In this document: positions 5,353 through 46,800 of the stretch, piece after piece | Numbering within the stretch: the first letter of the stretch is position 1 | Layout of the letters: each line of letters begins with the position of its first letter | NCBI GenBank assembly: GCA_965199855.1 | Contig: OZ241326.1 | Location: forward strand, 1,248,001 to 1,312,000 | From: a bacterium | Lineage (GTDB): Bacteria > UBA8248 | DNA length: 64,000 bases | Direction: 5' to 3' | Notes under the pieces: model-generated | Told to the model about the DNA's origin: nothing | What the model saw: the letters and a program-made list of their open reading frames with translations, nothing else | Database searches by the model: none | Translations under genes and position numbers: made by a program

Positions 5353-6504
5353 ATGGACTTCGAGCTCAGCGAGACCCAGCGGCTCATCAGGGAGACGGCG
5401 GCGGACTTCGCCCGGACGCGCATCGCCCCCGTCGCGCGCGAGAACGACGCCGAGGAGCGCTTCCCCGCGGACGTCGTGCGGGAGATGGGGACGCTTGGAA
5501 TGTTCGGCGGGCCCGTTCCCGAGGAATACGGCGGGGCGGGGCTGGACTACGTCTCCTACGCCATTCTGAACGAGGAGATCAGCAAGGCGTGCAGCTCGGT
5601 GCGCACCGTCCTCTCGGTGCAGCTCTCCCTCGTCGCGACCACCATCCTGAAATGGGGGAGCGAGGCGCAGAAGAGAAAGTATCTGCCCAGGCTCTGCTCG
5701 GCGGAGTGGCTCGGCTGCTTCGGCCTCACCGAGCCGGACGCGGGCTCGGACGCGCAGAGCCTCAAGACCTTCGCGGAGAAGACGGCGGACGGCTGGAGGC
5801 TGAACGGGCAGAAGATATGGATCAGCAACGGCGGGGTGGCGCGGCTCGCGCTCGTCGTCGCGCAGACGGATCGGGAAAATCCCCGGAAGATGGCGGCGTT
5901 TCTGGTGGAAACCGACAGCGTGGGCTTCGAGGCGAAGTCGATGCGCGGGAAGCTCGGGCTTCGCAGCTCGAACACGGCGGAGCTTTTCCTGGCGAACGTG
6001 GAGGTTCCCGACGAGGCGCTGCTGGGCCGGGTGGGCGACGGCTTCAAGGTGGCGATGAGCGCGCTGGACAACGGGCGCTATTCGGTGGGCGCGGGCTGTC
6101 TGGGAATCGCGCAGGGCTCGCTCGAGGCCTCCGTCGCCTACGCGAAGGAGCGCCGCGCGTTCGGCAAGCCCATCGCGGCGCATCAGCTCGTGCAGGACAT
6201 GATCGCCCGCATGGTGGTGGACGTCGAGGCGAGCAGGCTTCTGCTCTACCGGGCGGGGGAGCTCAAGAACGCGGGGCGGCCGAACGCGCGCGAGACCAGC
6301 ATCGCCAAGTACTACTGCAGCGAGGCGGCGCTGCGCTGCGCGAACGACGCCATCCAGATTCACGGGGGCATGGGCTACAGCAGCGAGTATCCCGCCGAGC
6401 GCTACATGCGCGACGCCCGCGTGGCGACCATCTACGAGGGAACCAGCCAGATTCAGAAGCTCATCATCGCCGGCCACGAAACCGGAATCCGCGCGTTTTC
6501 CTAG
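5353..6504 (+). CDS. Acyl-CoA dehydrogenase (short-chain type)
   Basis: FGLTEPDAGSD, LNGQKIWISNG, QIHGGMGY, IYEGTSQIQ. Confidence 0.95.
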   Translation: MDFELSETQRLIRETAADFARTRIAPVARENDAEERFPADVVREMGTLGMFGGPVPEEYGGAGLDYVSYAILNEEISKACSSVRTVLSVQLSLVATTILKWGSEAQKRKYLPRLCSAEWLGCFGLTEPDAGSDAQSLKTFAEKTADGWRLNGQKIWISNGGVARLALVVAQTDRENPRKMAAFLVETDSVGFEAKSMRGKLGLRSSNTAELFLANVEVPDEALLGRVGDGFKVAMSALDNGRYSVGAGCLGIAQGSLEASVAYAKERRAFGKPIAAHQLVQDMIARMVVDVEASRLLLYRAGELKNAGRPNARETSIAKYYCSEAALRCANDAIQIHGGMGYSSEYPAERYMRDARVATIYEGTSQIQKLIIAGHETGIRAFS

Positions 6505-6544
6505 GGGCGGACGCCGCCGGCTCGCTGGTTTTTCCATGTTGTGC

Positions 6545-6573
6545 TTGGTGAAGCTGAAAATCCATTATATCAT
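6545..6573 (+). promoter_or_regulatory. Candidate sigma70-type promoter for the low-GC cassette
   Basis: TTGGTG-N17-TATCAT at the left edge of the low-GC segment. Confidence 0.35.
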
Positions 6574-6674
6574 TGCCTATACATTCCCATTGCAATTTTC
6601 TAAACTTCGAGAGTGGCGACTCCCGGGTGGAGGAGTTCCGTCCGAAACTGGAGCGAAAAGGGGGTGATGACGCT

Positions 6675-7289
6675 GTGTTGCATGTGAGCAGCTTCGTATT
6701 TGCCGGGAATTTCCCGGAAAATATGTTTGACGAACGAGAATTGTTTGATGGAAGGATCGATCCTGGAGGACGCCTTCACGCCGGTCCAGTCCTGCAATGC
6801 TCGTATGCGGGCGGAGTGTATCAATTCCATGCCATGCCGGATCGAATTGATCTGAGAGCGAACACGCCGAACATTATGCCCGATACCCTTATCGAGGCGG
6901 GTCAATTTATAGCCAAACAACTCGACGATGTAAAGCGAGCCGTCAAGGTTTCAGGCTTTGGAATGAATTGTGATACCATTTTTGATCAACATTTGATTCG
7001 CGCCAAGGGGCGTGACTATTGCTTTAACTTATTGGCTGGACACAAAATGAGGGCAATCGTTGACTCAGAAATTACCAATCCTCTCTCAAGAGTGCAATTC
7101 ATAAAAGGCGCAATGCGCTATGATGTGCGGATTGAGCCTCACTTTCAATCTGAGGGCAACAATTTGTTTGTGGCCGTGAACGGTCATCAAAATATCAGCG
7201 CGCAAGACTCCCTGGGTGAAAGGCTCCAATACACAGACGCTTTCAGGGAATATGTCGAAGGATTGCATCGGCGTGTTCTAAAGACTTGA
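6675..7289 (+). CDS. Hypothetical protein, gene 1 of low-GC cassette (TIGR04255-like, by recall)
   Basis: ORF 6573..7289; GTG 6675 preferred because of the AAAGGGGGTG RBS; AT-rich third positions; SFVFAGNF...GFGMN...RIEP...VNGH pattern. Confidence 0.7.
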   Translation: MLHVSSFVFAGNFPENMFDERELFDGRIDPGGRLHAGPVLQCSYAGGVYQFHAMPDRIDLRANTPNIMPDTLIEAGQFIAKQLDDVKRAVKVSGFGMNCDTIFDQHLIRAKGRDYCFNLLAGHKMRAIVDSEITNPLSRVQFIKGAMRYDVRIEPHFQSEGNNLFVAVNGHQNISAQDSLGERLQYTDAFREYVEGLHRRVLKT

Positions 7290-7302
7290 AGGAGCGAATG
7301 AT

Positions 7303-7866
7303 ATGGAAACGGCGGTTGCGTCAACGACATCTCGGGATAGCAATGCAGAATCAGGGCCTCGCAATCATGGGCTTACGCTGGCATTGCATAAACTATACCA
7401 AGATGAGCGCGCTCCAGAATACAAAGGGGAATTAAGTCGTCTCCTTTGTGAGGCTTCTCAACCAAAGCAAGATGCTGTCCAGATTCCTGAATACATTTTT
7501 GAGCGCGAATCCCTCAAGCAAGAAGTCAACGAACTTCTTGAAAGCGCCGGGTCAGAAAACTGGGACGGCGAGGGCGCTCTTGCGATTACGCCCGGTCTTG
7601 TCGGGATTGCGCATGAGGTCATCGAGAAATTGCCGATATACGCCGCCAAACCTGATGTCGAGGCTACGCCGCACGGCGAGATCGATTTCGATTGGGTCGT
7701 CGATCAGAATACGATGCTCACCGTCAGCGTGGCGCCTCCAAATGTAGTCGCATTCGCAGGTACGTTTCCAGAAGCGCGTCTTGCGGGCAAGGAAGAGTGG
7801 GCAGGCGAACTTCCCCATTTCGTAGAGTGTTGTCTTAAGCGAATCAAGCAAATCGGGAAACTGTAA
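7303..7866 (+). CDS. Hypothetical protein, gene 2 of low-GC cassette (NWDGEGA...PTPHGEIDFDW family)
   Basis: AAGGAG RBS; starts 13 nt after gene 1; low-complexity N-terminus and globular C-terminal domain. Confidence 0.8.
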   Translation: METAVASTTSRDSNAESGPRNHGLTLALHKLYQDERAPEYKGELSRLLCEASQPKQDAVQIPEYIFERESLKQEVNELLESAGSENWDGEGALAITPGLVGIAHEVIEKLPIYAAKPDVEATPHGEIDFDWVVDQNTMLTVSVAPPNVVAFAGTFPEARLAGKEEWAGELPHFVECCLKRIKQIGKL

Positions 7867-7869
7867 TAT

Positions 7870-8258
7870 ATGGCCTCCCGAGCGGAGGGTTCGCTTGCTC
7901 GGTTTGCGGTGGAAAGCGGACGCTTCGGCCCTCGACTGTAAAGCCGAAACTCTTTGAGCCCAACAGAAACCTTGAGCTATCCGTGTTTGGCATCGGAGGG
8001 CTTGTCTGCGCGGAGGTACGGGATTTGGGCATTGCCGTTGCGCGACGGCATCCAACGGCCCGCCAACTCCATGGCTGGGGAGAAATATCCGAGGAAGCGG
8101 TGGCCAGTGCGGAACTTGATATTGAGTATGACAACCAACCTGAACGTCATGCCAACATAACCGGCTGGCCCGAAGATATAGAGGAACGAAAGCTGAAGCA
8201 GCAACTTTTAGCAAGCCGCGCGCATCCGGTGAAGTTTGATTCACCGATCCCGGTATAA
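7870..8258 (+). pseudogene. Frameshifted small protein, gene 3 of cassette (candidate ADP-ribosyltransferase-like toxin)
   Basis: ATG 7870 reads MASRAEGSLARFAVESGRFGP and stops at 7939-7941; the -1 frame continues STVKPKLFEPNRNLELSVF...RHANITGWP to TAA 8258; one extra C in CCC 7929-7931 would give a single ORF of about 129 aa. Confidence 0.65.
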
Positions 8259-8444
8259 TTCCCGAACCGGTCGTTGTTTGTCATGGAGCGGATGATTGCG
8301 AAATTCGCTTTCCGGCGTTCGCTCCACTCCCCGCGCCGTTGGCGCGCATTCTCTGGGCTTGGCCTTGAAAACCCCTTGAAATTCGCCCCGGAACGGGGTA
8401 AGGCTCATCCGGAGCCGGAATTTCACGGCGAGGGGGGGGCGCTC

Positions 8445-34328: not shown

Positions 34329-34397
34329 GGCGCTTTGGCGCGACCGGGATTTTCACGGATTCAGACGACTGCCTGGCGAGAGGAAAGGAGCGGAACA

Positions 34398-36179
34398 TTG
34401 GCGCAAGCGATGCAGACGAAGAAAAAGAAGAATGCCGATGACGTGAAGAACCTGATCGACCTCGGCAAGGAGAAGGGCTTCCTCACCTACGAGGAGGTCA
34501 ACGACGTTCTGCCGCCGGACGTCACCTCGCCCGAGGTGATCGACGACATCATGGTGCTCTTCAACGACATGGACGTCGAGATTCTCGACAGCGAGTCGGC
34601 GGAGAAGCGCGCCGCCAAGAAGAAGGTCGAGGCGGCGAGTCCGGCGAAGGCGGGCGCGGAGACGACCAGCTCCTTCGACGACGCGACCTACGGGAAGACC
34701 GACGACCCCATGCGCATGTATCTGCGCGAGATGGGGCAGATTCCCCTCCTGACCAGGGAGGGCGAGATCGCCATCGCCAAGCGGATAGAGGAGGGGCAGT
34801 TCGAGGTGTGCCAGGCGGCGGTGAGCACGCGCGTGGCGATCAACGCCGTTCTGGAGCTGACCGATCAGCTCAGGAAGGACGAGCTCAGCGTGACCGATCT
34901 CGTCGTCGTCACTAGCGAGGCGGCCTCGGACGACGAGGAGAAGGAAAAGCCCGCCTACGAGGAGGACAAGCGGCGCGTCCTCAAGCTCGTGAGCAGGCTC
35001 AAGACGCAGCTTCGCGCCCTGGAGAAGAAGAAGGCGGCGGGCGACAAGCCGGCCTCCCTCCAGCGGACGCACGACAAGGTGGCCTCCTGCATCCGCGAGA
35101 TGAACCTGCGGCCCGAGCGCGTGGACAGCATCGCCGAGCGCGTGAAGTCCTACGTGGAGTCGATGCGCGGGCATCAGGAGGAGATCGGGCGGTATCTCGA
35201 CGCGGTGGGGATGGACGAGGCGCAGCTGCGCGCCGCGCTTCGGGAGGCCGCGAAGTCGAAGGGAAAGAAGGGCTCCGCCATCCTCAGCGCCGGCGGGAAG
35301 CCCGTCTCCGTCATCGTTCTCGCCGAGTATGATCGCCGCATCAAGAACGTGCGCCGCCGCATCCGCGCGACGGAGAAGGAGGCGGGCGCCTCCCGCGCGG
35401 AGCTCGAGAATTCGCTCAGGATGATTCGCCGCGGCCGCCGCAAGGATCGCCAGGCGAAGAAGGAGCTCGCCGAGGCGAACCTGCGCCTCGTCGTGAGCAT
35501 CGCCAAGAAATACACGAACCGCGGCCTCCAGTTCCTCGATCTGATTCAGGAGGGCAACATCGGCCTGATGAAGGCGGTGGACAAGTTTGAATACAAGCGC
35601 GGCTACAAGTTCAGCACCTACGCCACGTGGTGGATACGCCAGGCCATCACCCGGGCGATCGCCGATCAGGCGCGGACGATCCGCATCCCCGTCCACATGA
35701 TCGAGACGATCAACAAGCTCATCCGCACCTCGCGGCAGCTCCTCCAGAAGCTCGGGCGCGAGCCCCTGCCCGAGGAGGTCGCCAGGGCGATGGAGATACC
35801 CGTCGAGAAGGTGCGCCGGGTGCTCAAGATCGCCAAGGAGCCCATCAGCCTCGAGACGCCCATCGGCGAGGAGGAGGACAGCCAGCTGGGCGACTTCATC
35901 AAGGACGAGAAGGCCGAGGTGCCGCAGGATTCCGTCATCAAGCTGAACCTCAAGGAGCAGACCCAGAAGGTGCTTCAGACCCTCAGCCCGCGCGAGGAGA
36001 AGGTGCTGCGCAAGCGCTTCGGCATCGGCGCGGAGAACGAGCACACGCTCGAGGAGGTGGGGCAGGACTTCGACGTCACCCGCGAGCGCATTCGCCAGAT
36101 CGAGGCCAAGGCGCTCCGCAAGCTTCGCCACCCCACGAGGAGCCGCAAGCTCAAGAGCTTCATCGAGGAGGAAGGCTGA
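34398..36179 (+). CDS. rpoD: RNA polymerase primary sigma factor
   Basis: [56 protein letters not shown]; TTG 34398 after AGGAAAGGAG. Confidence 0.98.
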
Positions 36180-36302: not shown

Positions 36303-36377
36303 GGGCCCATAGCTCAGCGGCAGAGCCGCCGGCTCATAACCGGCTGGTCCTTGGTTCGAATCCAGGTGGGCCCACCA
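36303..36377 (+). tRNA. tRNA with CAT anticodon, probably tRNA-Ile2 (lysidine) rather than Met
   Basis: GGGCCCA/TGGGCCC stem, GCCGG-CTCATAA-CCGGC arm, encoded CCA; paired 1:72 excludes fMet; Ile2-like sequence and position after rpoD. Confidence 0.92.
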
Positions 36378-36422: not shown

Positions 36423-37376
36423 GTGCACCCGGAGCTGACGGCGCTGAAAGAGCTTCAGGCGGTCGACCTTGAGATGGACGCGCGGCGCGAGGCGATAGCC
36501 GCCGTTCCCGCCTCGATTGAAAGGGAAAAGCGCTATCTCACGGGCTTCGAGTCGGCTGTTCAGGAGCTCGAGAAGGAGCTGGAGGCCGCCCGCAAGAGGC
36601 AGCGCGAGGCGGAGGGCGAGGTTCAGGACTTCGACCAGAAGCTGCGCGACGCGCGCGGCAAGCAGACGCTCGTCAAGACGAACGAGGAATACCGCGCCCT
36701 GGGAGCGGAGATAGCGGGCTTTCAGACGAAAATCAGCGCGCGCGAGGACGCCGTTCTCGAAATCATGGACGAAATGCCCTCGCGCGAGGAGGCGCTCGCC
36801 CGCGCGCGCGGCGAGCGGGAGGCGGCGCGGGACAGGGCGCGGGGCGAGGTGAAGAAGCACGAGCGCCGCCGGGAGGAGCTGGAGCGGGAGCTGGGCGGCC
36901 TTTCCGCCAAGTCGAAATCGCTGGCGGGCGAAATCAGCCCGGAGTGGCTGAGGCGCTACCGGGGCTTGCGAAAATCCCGCAAGGGGCTGGCCGTCTGCGC
37001 CATCGTCAACCGCGCCTGCCAGGGGTGCCGCACGGCGGAGACCATCAAGCGCTTTCTGGAGATCCGGGACTCGAAGGACGCGATTTACGCCTGCTCGAAC
37101 TGCGGCCGCATCCTGTATTACGAGGAGGGCGAGACGGAGGATTTGAGCCTCCCGGGAGAGGATGATGGTGCCGGCTATTCTACAAAAATAGGGTCCGTAA
37201 ATAGAAACAGCCAAGAAGTTATTCGGAAGACCAGTATCCCCGGCAACGACCACAATCAGTGGGTCTTTGTCTTGCGATGTGGTGAGTGTAATTATGAATA
37301 TGGATCGAACGGTTCGGATAACCACCAGAGACGATGCCCAAAATGCCAGGGCGGAGCGGCGGGGCTTTCGTATTAA
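36423..37376 (+). CDS. Coiled-coil C4 zinc-ribbon protein (DUF164/CT398-like) with extra low-GC C-terminal Zn-ribbon domain
   Basis: L..LQ.VD, TNEEYRAL..EI, CQGC...CSNCGRILY, then an added tail with CGEC...CPKC; start GTG 36423 or TTG 36417. Confidence 0.88.
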   Translation: MHPELTALKELQAVDLEMDARREAIAAVPASIEREKRYLTGFESAVQELEKELEAARKRQREAEGEVQDFDQKLRDARGKQTLVKTNEEYRALGAEIAGFQTKISAREDAVLEIMDEMPSREEALARARGEREAARDRARGEVKKHERRREELERELGGLSAKSKSLAGEISPEWLRRYRGLRKSRKGLAVCAIVNRACQGCRTAETIKRFLEIRDSKDAIYACSNCGRILYYEEGETEDLSLPGEDDGAGYSTKIGSVNRNSQEVIRKTSIPGNDHNQWVFVLRCGECNYEYGSNGSDNHQRRCPKCQGGAAGLSY

Positions 37377-37420
37377 AAACTGCGGCCCCTAAGCCCGAGC
37401 TCTATAAGGAATGTTGCCGA

Positions 37421-37837
37421 ATGAAGGGGCGCTATCTCCGGGTTCACACCGACGGCGCGGCGCGCGGGAATCCGGGGCCGGCCGCCGCCGCCGCCGTGCT
37501 GTATGACGACGCGGGCGACCGCGTGGCGGAGGAGTCGCGGTATCTGGGGGCGGCGACGAACAACGTGGCGGAATACCAGGCGCTTCTGCTGGGCCTCGAG
37601 CGCGCCGCGAAACTGGGAGCCTCGCGCGTGGAGGTGGTGACGGATTCCGAACTCATCGCCCGCCAGTGGAGCGGAGAGTATCGGGTGAAGAACAAGGCGC
37701 TCAAGCCCCTCTATGAGCGGGCGAAGGAGGCGGCCCGGGCGTTCGGCTCCGTCGCCGTGCGCCACGCGCCGCGCGCGCGGAACGCGGCGGCCGACGCCGC
37801 CGCCAACCGCGCCATCGACGCCGGGACGGCTTCGTAG
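37421..37837 (+). CDS. rnhA: Ribonuclease HI family protein
   Basis: TDGAARGNPGPA, TNNVAEY, DSEL, N..AD..AN. Confidence 0.93.
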   Translation: MKGRYLRVHTDGAARGNPGPAAAAAVLYDDAGDRVAEESRYLGAATNNVAEYQALLLGLERAAKLGASRVEVVTDSELIARQWSGEYRVKNKALKPLYERAKEAARAFGSVAVRHAPRARNAAADAAANRAIDAGTAS

Positions 37838-37874: not shown

Positions 37875-38239
<365 letters not shown>

Positions 38240-38277
38240 CGACAGGATTCGAGGGCGCGCTCCCCGGAGGCGCGAAA

Positions 38278-46378: not shown

Positions 46379-46735
46379 TCTGCCCCCGCGCCTCCCTTCG
46401 GGGAAAAGGCCGCGGGCGAGGACGCTTGGCTTTGGGCGAATCTTCCCTGTCCGGGCGCGGATGAAGGGAAAATCGCAGGGGACATCGCGCCCGTTCTTCT
46501 CTCGCCCCGGTGAATTTTTCTTTTCGACGCCTCCTTCCCGCGCGGTCGCTCTCTGAAGTATCTCCCACCATGCCCCACAAGTTTAATTTTTCATTTTAAC
46601 TTCAATGAATTAATCCTATTTTATTAAAGTAAATCCTGATGTTTTATCCCTGAAAACACTCCTGGAAAATTAAAATAATTTCTATCTTTTATGGCTAGAA
46701 ATTGTTGTTTTTTCTCAGTTTTCTCTATTTTCGTA

Positions 46736-46800
46736 TTGACAGGACTTTTTCGGGGGGATATAAGAATAAAAATCAGTGGGAAATAATGGGGTGAAGTGGG
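46736..46800 (+). promoter_or_regulatory. dcw promoter and MraZ-box direct repeats
   Basis: TTGACA-N17-TATAAG (46736-46764); GTGGG/ATGGG/GTGGG at 46776, 46786 and 46796 (10-bp period). Confidence 0.8.

Follow-up and report, generated by a model that had tools for sequence, protein, structure and literature searches.

Why should a housekeeping protein run on past its customary end into a second domain of alien composition? The question is raised by a gene at positions 36423-37376 (+) of the stretch analysed here, 64,000 nucleotides of contig OZ241326.1 (positions 1,248,001 to 1,312,000; assembly GCA_965199855.1, GTDB lineage Bacteria; UBA8248), hereafter the window; its genome is referred to as G000 and the closest relative as G001. 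The gene is a single open frame of 317 codons, encoding a CT398/DUF164 protein of 317 amino acids. A preliminary description of this DNA had pointed out that the protein passes its usual end and continues through an acidic linker into a domain of about 67 amino acids, and both the open reading frame (ORF) and its translation agree. The answer that we consider probable is that this domain (the module) is a horizontally acquired and recombining accessory zinc finger, likely to bind nucleic acid, which became fused to CT398 by chance and is polymorphic.

The fused gene extends from a GTG start at 36423 to a TAA stop at 37374..37376 (+). The CT398/DUF164 body (36423..37154, +) corresponds by orthology to the whole gene of the relatives and consists of a coiled-coil hairpin and a probable C4 zinc ribbon, ending in ...EDLSLP. 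In Pfam, residues 11-185 match CT398_CC (PF24481) with 28.6 bits against a cutoff of 27, and Zn_ribbon_9 (PF02591) aligns over its full 33-position profile with residues 198-231, where the CQGC and CSNC pairs are found, at E 6.6e-6 and 26.6 bits, which is slightly below the cutoff of 29.1. The NCBIfam equivalog model for CdsZ (NF047363) gives 76.1 bits, far under its cutoff of 275, and the protein is therefore treated as a member of the CT398 family and not as a CdsZ equivalog. In the translation the body reads ...CSNCGRILYYEEGETEDLSLPGEDDGAG before the 67-residue tail, and EEGETEDLSLPGEDDGAG joins ...CSNCGRILYY to this tail, which bears CGEC and CPKC. The acidic and glycine-containing linker GEDDGA occupies 37155..37172 (+) and the module itself (GYSTKIGSVNRN...CGEC...CPKC...GLSY), a member of an unnamed family, 37173..37373 (+). 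Linker, module, stop and about 40 nucleotides of 3' sequence make up an insert of about 260 base pairs (37155..37417, +), the boundaries of which are approximate within a few bases. The low G+C content (GC) of the tail had also been remarked upon, and it holds: GC is 0.475-0.49 over 37160-37339 compared to 0.63-0.77 over 36440-37039 in windows of 120 nucleotides. Tail GC is 0.488 with a third-position value (GC3) of 0.507, while the gene body has a GC of 0.674 and a GC3 of 0.879, and GC3 of the RNase H-like gene that follows is 0.891.

The relatives show where the insert went in. The whole protein was matched in 40 of 41 related genomes, with 63-78% identity in all 22 other genomes of the genus; in 21 of these 22 the CT398 match stops near query residue 246-268 with nothing after it, a count to be read with the caveat that kin genomes are not independent of one another. 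When the junctions of G000 and G001 were aligned (MAFFT) with those of 10 tail-less genomes of the same genus, the tail-less genes were seen to end in ...LSLPAVD(E/P)E and their TGA to overlap the ATG of the RNase H-like gene (GAATGA) in 10 of 10. Orthologues thus normally end after the ribbon, as had been claimed, and a tail of host-like GC carried throughout the clade, which had been named as an outcome that would speak against a graft, was not found. Only G000 and G001 have about 260 base pairs (approximately 37155-37417) between LSLP and the RNase H ATG, and these take the place of 18-21 nucleotides holding the original stop/start overlap. Owing to the insert, the RNase H start now lies about 45 nucleotides from the CT398 stop; the overlap has therefore ended and the two genes are uncoupled. 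The linker has diverged between G000 and G001 and contains an indel, and at the DNA level the insert is single-copy in the G000 genome.

Two of the 23 genus genomes have the module at the CT398 site; taken alone, it was matched in 6 of the 42 genomes of the taxonomic family, all six in this genus. In G003-G006 it forms the C-terminus of a Swt1-type HEPN protein of about 242 amino acids (PF18731, 2e-28), the gene for which sits between aldehyde-oxidoreductase-like and acyl-CoA-dehydrogenase-like genes. The foreign composition, this patchy occurrence and the absence of a start codon in the module bear out the earlier proposal that it was acquired horizontally and fused without a start of its own. 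Just downstream of the HEPN_Swt1-module gene of G004 (locus L013, 2240-2700) a peptide pattern of about 35 amino acids repeats in several frames, which implies a tandem DNA repeat of about 100 nucleotides.

A search for terminal or target-site repeats at the insert gave only a direct repeat of 8-10 nucleotides and a 20-nucleotide inverted repeat of 75% identity. Both are judged to be due to chance, and one arm of the inverted repeat lies in conserved CT398 sequence. Rickettsia palindromic elements and similar sequences are short mobile DNAs that insert in frame into genes, and the present insert resembles them in being a short foreign segment that adds a peptide without destroying a conserved gene. 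Unlike them, it encodes a domain that is predicted to fold and is under selection at the protein level. Repeated DNA like these elements or like miniature inverted-repeat transposable elements was rejected, as G000 has one copy and terminal repeats are at chance level only.

The reading frame across the junction is decided by a run of five A residues (A5) at 37184..37188 (+), where the window reads TCT ACA AAA ATA GGG (S T K I G). G001 has four (A4) and reads TCT ACA AAA TAG; the stop falls five codons into the module and the remaining module is in the -1 frame. Assembled contigs from four sequencing runs were aligned to the window. X1 (depth 74), probably the source sample, is identical to the window over 36900-37600, and X4 (depth 2), from another study, is identical over 36900-37555. 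X3 (depth 7) and X8 (depth 37.6) each come from a further study and have one base fewer at 37184; both carry TCC>GAA at 37194-6, G>A at 37210 and G>A at 37215, and X8 additionally has T>C at 37219, A>G at 37348, changes at 37399 and 37401, and a C inserted behind 37385. With A5 in X1 and X4 and A4 in X3 and X8, the fused frame is genuine in G000, yet it is one of two alleles. A stop or frameshift in the reads had been named in advance as evidence against the fusion; none exists in G000's own run, but G001, X3 and X8, lacking one A at 37184, run into the TAG. Window sequence occurs in 17 runs, most of which are labelled as sponge metagenomes; no RNA run was listed among them.

In the -1 frame, no ATG, GTG or TTG was found upstream of the module core, either in G001 or in the window sequence minus one A, and G001 has no ORF of at least 50 amino acids in the module frame. 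In relatives such as P0013 and P0018 the residues G-Y-S-T-(E/K) directly precede the module core, as they do in the window. The module therefore begins upstream of the A run, and its native frame is the fused one.

The module is conserved as a protein and has a history apart from that of its host genes. Over its 62 codons, the module shows a nonsynonymous divergence (dN) of 0.131 and a synonymous divergence (dS) of 1.00 between G000 and G001, i.e., a ratio (omega) of 0.13, with no stop or indel; the nonsynonymous deficit is significant (Fisher p=1.4e-7) and the other two frames of the module in these genomes are full of stops. For the same pair dS is 0.30 in the CT398 body (omega 0.38) and 0.23 in the RNase H gene (omega 0.45). 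The module has three to four times the dS of its flanks (p=5e-4 against the CT398 body and p=1e-4 against RNase H), with the caveat that a dS near 1 over about 40 sites is noisy. GC3 of the module has hardly risen, being 0.51 and 0.565, and this argues against simple amelioration. In the HEPN fusions of G003-G006 the tree of the module disagrees with that of the HEPN part. G004 and G006 have a dS of 0.26 in the HEPN part (18 of 140 third positions differ) and of 1.0 in the module (25 of 63; p=3e-5), and G004 and G005 have 0.69 in the HEPN part (47 of 140) and 0.28 in the module (8 of 63; p=0.002); third-position counts cover the pairs of G004, G005 and G006, and the other values for the HEPN fusions are codon-aligned. 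A similar clustering is seen among close strains. The substitutions listed between X8 and the window number 9 in the 263-nucleotide insert against 1 in 438 nucleotides of flank (p=9e-4; counting the triple change as one event, p=0.03), and those listed between X3 and the window 7 in the insert and 0 in the flanks, two of the seven lying near the contig end. Every listed substitution within the module between the window and the close strains is nonsynonymous. We conclude that the module segment is exchanged by recombination independently of the host gene and that it is under strong constraint at the protein level wherever it resides.

Is the module known from elsewhere? Its 67 residues were compared by phmmer, exhaustively, with 1.84 billion cluster representatives, and matched 749 of them at E<=1e-3 and 318 at E<=1e-10, with E down to 1e-27. 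Identity among the matches listed is 24-68%, mostly 50-66%. This confirms the placement of the tail in a family of small CxxC...CPxC proteins suggested in the preliminary description. A profile search found the module in 505 proteins of at least 210 amino acids at E<=1e-8, and 229 of 255 candidate stretches were confirmed in a scan of one genome per species. The confirmed stretches come from many phyla, with members in Alpha-, Beta- and Gammaproteobacteria, Gemmatimonadota, Acidobacteriota, Actinomycetota, Nitrospinota, Planctomycetota, Verrucomicrobiota and others. The consensus is TT.pGY.NRN.Q.V.R.T.LPGTDH.Q.VYVLRC..C..EYGANGSD..QRKCP.CQGG.PGL, in which, besides the four Cys, G7, N10, Q14, V16, T20, G24, D26, Q29, Y32, Y43, G44, N46, G47, D49, R53, P56, G61 and G64 are nearly invariant. 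The window tail has all 22 invariant or nearly invariant positions except for a conservative change of Y32 to F, and with 8 K/R against 5 D/E it is net basic. In spite of its size, the family has no matching model in Pfam, NCBIfam, PADLOC or PHROGs (best E 0.016), and the ESM Atlas returned only unnamed 'hypothetical protein' clusters for the module.

An AlphaFold2 model from 51 aligned sequences has a predicted local distance difference test score (pLDDT) of 92.8 over the module and a predicted template-modelling score (pTM) of 0.79. It has strands at residues 14-23, 30-36 and 42-46 and a short helix at 47-52, and places CxxC in a hairpin and CPxC after the helix, so that the cysteines form two knuckles. 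Foldseek found no match to this model in PDB or BFVD at E<=0.001. The weaker rows can serve as leads only; they were the CarD/CdnL N-terminal domain, HEX-1/eIF5A and the NrdR ribbon in PDB, and AP2-domain and HNH homing-endonuclease proteins in BFVD (E 0.1-0.5). A profile search of PDB gave an RPC10 ribbon at E 0.13 as its only hit. A predicted complex of two module copies scored 0.02, which bears neither way on a homodimer. An HNH-type nuclease was considered and rejected, as there was no HNH match in Pfam and the conserved D-H precedes the first knuckle, outside the beta-hairpin in our reading of the topology. Judged from its sequence, the module is a putative zinc ribbon or finger of the general kind that is common in conflict-system proteins.

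The family had been described in the preliminary description as free-standing ORFs, and this is true of a part of it. Of the 80 loci kept, a motif recognised the module in 75, and three of the five missed contain it on inspection. Among the 75, 33 are C-terminal fusions with at least 100 amino acids ahead of the module, 30 are free-standing or have a leader of at most 45 amino acids, 6 have leaders of 60-99 amino acids, 2 carry the module at the N-terminus of a fusion, and the other 4 are damaged or have no canonical start; the family is thus not mainly free-standing. The module is also found ahead of an arginase and of a HIT protein. Individual loci depart from these patterns. The free-standing copy at about 2850-3000 of L034, a metagenome-assembled genome of Hyphomicrobiaceae, lacks any ATG, GTG or TTG ahead of its core but has a strong GGAGGTGA a short way upstream of an in-frame AAA ATA AAT, which suggests the use of a non-canonical start. 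L075 (Stenotrophomonas lacuserhaii) has a damaged module with an in-frame TAG after ...NRNGQ, and the copy in L088 (Olavius symbiont Delta 3) is without its N-terminal third.

Pfam identified few partners in the 83 proteins scanned, i.e., DUF429 in 12, HEPN_Swt1 in 3 and scattered singles; most had none, and many partnerless proteins of about 350 amino acids that start ...IGIDYSGA... look to us like divergent DUF429 members, a resemblance read by eye without a scored match. With PADLOC, partners matched a methyl-directed type II restriction endonuclease (mREase_II, 1.1e-35) and the candidates PDC-S39 (5.4e-31) and PDC-S44 (2.2e-10). All-versus-all clustering of ORFs from the 80 loci revealed no constant neighbour beyond lineage-specific synteny, and there was no sign of recent transposition in the form of locus pairs with modules more than 90% identical in unrelated contexts. 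In 11 Rhodobacterales loci (L028, L032, L037, L050, L055, L061 and others), one of them on a Limimaricola plasmid, a conserved ORF of 276-305 amino acids lies upstream of a module fusion of about 465 or about 350 amino acids, and its C-terminus looks to us like a PD-(D/E)xK/DUF3883-type nuclease.

How does the fused protein compare with characterised proteins? Residues 1 to about 240 share the coiled-coil hairpin and probably the C4 ribbon of CT398 of C. trachomatis, HP0958 of H. pylori and MSMEG_4306. The ribbon of HP0958 is reported to bind flaA mRNA, and proteins of the family to bind RpoN and FliH (PMC5947703). None of the solved or listed relatives in the CT398 family has a second zinc finger after the ribbon, in which the window protein differs from them. 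The module is similar to FmdB/CxxC_CxxC_SSSS and Zn_ribbon_8 in that a core of about 40 amino acids contains two CxxC knuckles spaced by about 15 residues, but unlike these it has an extra conserved N-terminal strand and motifs of its own, NRNxQ, PGTDHxQ and YGANGSD. Membership in the FmdB/Zn_ribbon_8 group was rejected on score (TIGR02605, 13 bits against 31.3; PF09723, E 0.81).

Another parallel is RAZR (PD-T7-4), described in PMC13017515 as an anti-phage protein with a zinc finger and a HEPN RNase, in which the finger is the sensor, dimerises and is the most variable part. RAZR and the HEPN_Swt1-module proteins of G003-G006 are alike, by analogy only, in combining a small Cys4 ribbon-type domain with a HEPN RNase in one polypeptide. 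They differ in that the RAZR finger is N-terminal on a DUF4145-type HEPN, whereas the module is C-terminal on Swt1-type HEPN (PF18731) or DUF429-like proteins, and in that the module is the most conserved part, with 55-68% identity across phyla. PADLOC matched neither the module nor the HEPN-module protein, and neither was assigned to RAZR/PD-T7-4. In the literature on DUF429, RNase H-like, HEPN/Swt1 and zinc-ribbon defence proteins, articles without their supplements, no description of the module was found, and the Swt1-like rows in the article part of PMC3710099, again without its supplement, do not mention it. From these searches, the module family seems not to have been described. The CT398-module architecture was not encountered elsewhere, and the body is an ordinary CT398/DUF164 member.

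The sequence of events behind the fusion may be envisaged as follows. Foreign low-GC DNA of about 260 base pairs was inserted on the stop/start overlap of the CT398 and RNase H genes; G000 and G001 either inherited it from their common ancestor or exchanged it later. The insert encodes one complete module without a start, whose own N-terminal residues GYSTK fall in the CT398 frame; because of this and of A5, the module would be read as a C-terminal extension of CT398 behind the acidic linker. A change of one base in the A run (A4) brings back a stop in G001 and, among the four runs, in X3 and X8; the fusion is not fixed. Elsewhere the module is an accessory domain, mostly C-terminal on predicted conflict-system nucleases (DUF429-like with an RNase H fold, Swt1-type HEPN, PD-(D/E)xK or methyl-directed restriction-endonuclease-like, and the candidates PDC-S39 and PDC-S44), or as a small free-standing protein. 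It would tether or regulate its fusion partner, and on CT398 it would provide a second head for binding, carried by a flexible acidic linker. We are more tentative about the function taken by itself: it is possible rather than probable that zinc stabilises the module and that it serves as a binding head, with a conserved ligand that is most likely nucleic acid. Nucleic acid is favoured because the partners are nucleases, the window copy is net basic, and the module, contrary to what is reported for the RAZR finger, is conserved across phyla.

Several observations weigh against this account. With standard decoding, A4 breaks the fusion in G001, X3 and X8, i.e., in three of the five distinct insert-bearing records, and X8 has V changed to A at a nearly invariant position (37219), which fits decay after loss of the frame. 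No other CT398 fusion was seen among the 82 other fused representatives scanned or among the 120 listed of the longer proteins from the profile search. In 48 of 75 loci the module has a lower GC than its flanks, though the difference is usually at most 0.05, and low GC is in part intrinsic to the module. As the module recombines, part of the low omega may stem from constraint in donor lineages, so that it is no proof of continuous translation here, and that the module binds a ligand is something we infer only. Some of this would be expected if the fusion were an accidental read-through into a captured fragment, neutral or mildly harmful, with A4 as the 'repaired' state and the module at this site beginning to decay. 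Such a scenario would account for the changed V and the lack of a second CT398 fusion, for the restriction of A5 to the window, X1 and X4, whose sequences are mutually identical, and for A4 in G001, X3 and X8, where CT398 is left with an extra tail of only 18 amino acids; it would also suit the piling up in the insert of substitutions among close strains, all nonsynonymous in the module. It is nevertheless unlikely, though worth serious thought, in view of the omega of 0.13 without a stop or indel over 62 codons at a dS of about 1, and of the nearly invariant residues, all of which are kept in G000 and G001 except for Y to F in G000. Decay in place since these two genomes separated would look otherwise, unless the module was recently re-imported by recombination. 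An error of assembly or sequencing in a homopolymer would be another explanation of an extension whose frame hangs on a single base, in a single-contig genome that is possibly a long-read assembly. This is hardly credible, as X1 (depth 74) and X4 (another study, depth 2) agree on A5 and the A4 of other runs is a distinct allele linked to other substitutions.

If the fusion is genuine but A4 is not a dead end, the module could still be made from A4 alleles. Ribosomes might partly slip by -1 on C-AAA-A with TAG in the A site, yielding two products, chiefly plain CT398 with some fusion, and A5 would give the fusion only. The tRNA-Lys at AAA would re-pair perfectly with the overlapping AAA and the product would have a GYSTK-IG... 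junction identical to that of A5; the module frame is without an upstream ATG, GTG or TTG in G001 and the A4 strains. A4 is also the commoner allele (three records) and, by parsimony on (G001,(G000,X3,X8)), the more likely ancestral one, although purifying selection acts on the module. G001, X3 and X8 have an identical ACAAAATAG and omega is 0.13, which either a conserved shift site or recombination might explain. Shifting by -1 near the end of a gene is reportedly found in Bacillus subtilis cdd. Low-level compensatory frameshifting at indels has also been described (PMC5009743). The site is a poor one, however, with only four A's and no X_XXY_YYZ heptamer (slippage of a single tRNA is possible, but there is no tandem site), no Shine-Dalgarno-like element 6-14 nucleotides upstream in G000 or G001 and no notable downstream RNA fold (z=0.62; 144 of 200 shuffles fold as well), and recombination can explain a conserved module without translation in place. 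We therefore hold two products from A4 to be decidedly improbable. A broader scheme would make the module a domain-sized mobile cassette, a start-less 3' segment swapped among unrelated genes, with conflict nucleases and occasionally housekeeping genes (CT398, arginase, HIT) as hosts and the A run as an on/off or low/high switch; A5 would give the full fusion, and A4 a stop with a small fraction of fusion by the same -1 slip of tRNA-Lys. This seems to us quite unlikely. Translation of the module in A4 alleles as a separate small gene from a non-canonical start, e.g., ATA at 37188, may have a parallel in the free-standing copy of L034, which lacks a canonical start and has GGAGGTGA ahead of its in-frame AAA ATA AAT. 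No Shine-Dalgarno-like sequence precedes the ATA in G000 or G001, and the product would miss the conserved T/S-T residues, which are encoded in the other frame; a separate gene is very improbable. A horizontally acquired accessory finger, fused by chance and polymorphic, is thus the reading with which we proceed, and the interpretation in the preliminary description is supported.

The gene lies in the neighbourhood that had been recognised from the start, i.e., rpoD, tRNA, zinc ribbon, RNase H and rnpB. Upstream are an rpoD-like sigma-70 gene (34335..36179, +), named from its recognisable sigma-70 sequence and not from a family-library scan, and a tRNA-Met (CAT) gene (36303..36377, +; ARAGORN; Rfam RF00005, 65.4 bits). 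Downstream are the RNase H-like gene (37421..37837, +; RVT_3 1.7e-24 and RNase_H 2.8e-11 in Pfam), for which alignment with relatives indicates the ATG at 37421 as the likely start, and rnpB, the class A RNase P RNA (37877..38241, +; Rfam RF00010, 298.6 bits). Summed contig depth jumps at 37428-37499 for three of the runs. This rise is a mapping artefact and not a feature: the beginning of the RNase H gene contains the GC-rich GCCGCCGCC, which unrelated contigs have in common.

Other parts of the window also deviate in composition. The preliminary description had counted the CT398 gene as the second housekeeping gene with a grafted domain, the first being presumably the gene for ribosomal protein L31 at 19283-20104 (+; Ribosomal_L31, 5.3e-25). 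Here the L31 sequence is followed by a stretch rich in K, E and A, which is common to relatives in the genus, and by a C-terminal domain of about 100 amino acids that belongs to no Pfam family; GC is 0.50-0.58 over 19800-20200. These last 100 or so amino acids match only G004 and G006 (51% identity, in the same frame as L31) and G008, where the match is elsewhere and contains stops. A 2-kb island at 6400-8400 has a GC of 0.46-0.57 in a genome of about 0.70, and its ORFs at 6573-7289 and 7303-7866 (+) have no Pfam match. The lowest GC of any 200 nucleotides in the window, 0.305, is found at 46600-46800, which is overlapped by short ORFs only and has no Rfam match.

For the organism, the locus is a clean natural case of a housekeeping gene that gains a domain, as the insertion lies exactly on a stop/start overlap, tail-less sisters are at hand and both alleles are segregating. 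If it is true that A4 alleles express the module by slippage, this would be a simple chromosomal instance of domain addition controlled by frameshifting. That the module evolves as a unit apart from its host genes bears on how defence proteins are assembled from parts. For the family, the tail reveals a large and strongly conserved group of zinc fingers, with hundreds of clusters at 50% identity in many phyla, that is absent from the four domain libraries searched, and the module marks predicted single-protein nuclease systems (DUF429-like, Swt1-HEPN and PD-(D/E)xK). Its conservation is the opposite of that of the fast-evolving RAZR finger and therefore points to a conserved cellular or nucleic-acid ligand, which makes the family tractable for biochemistry.

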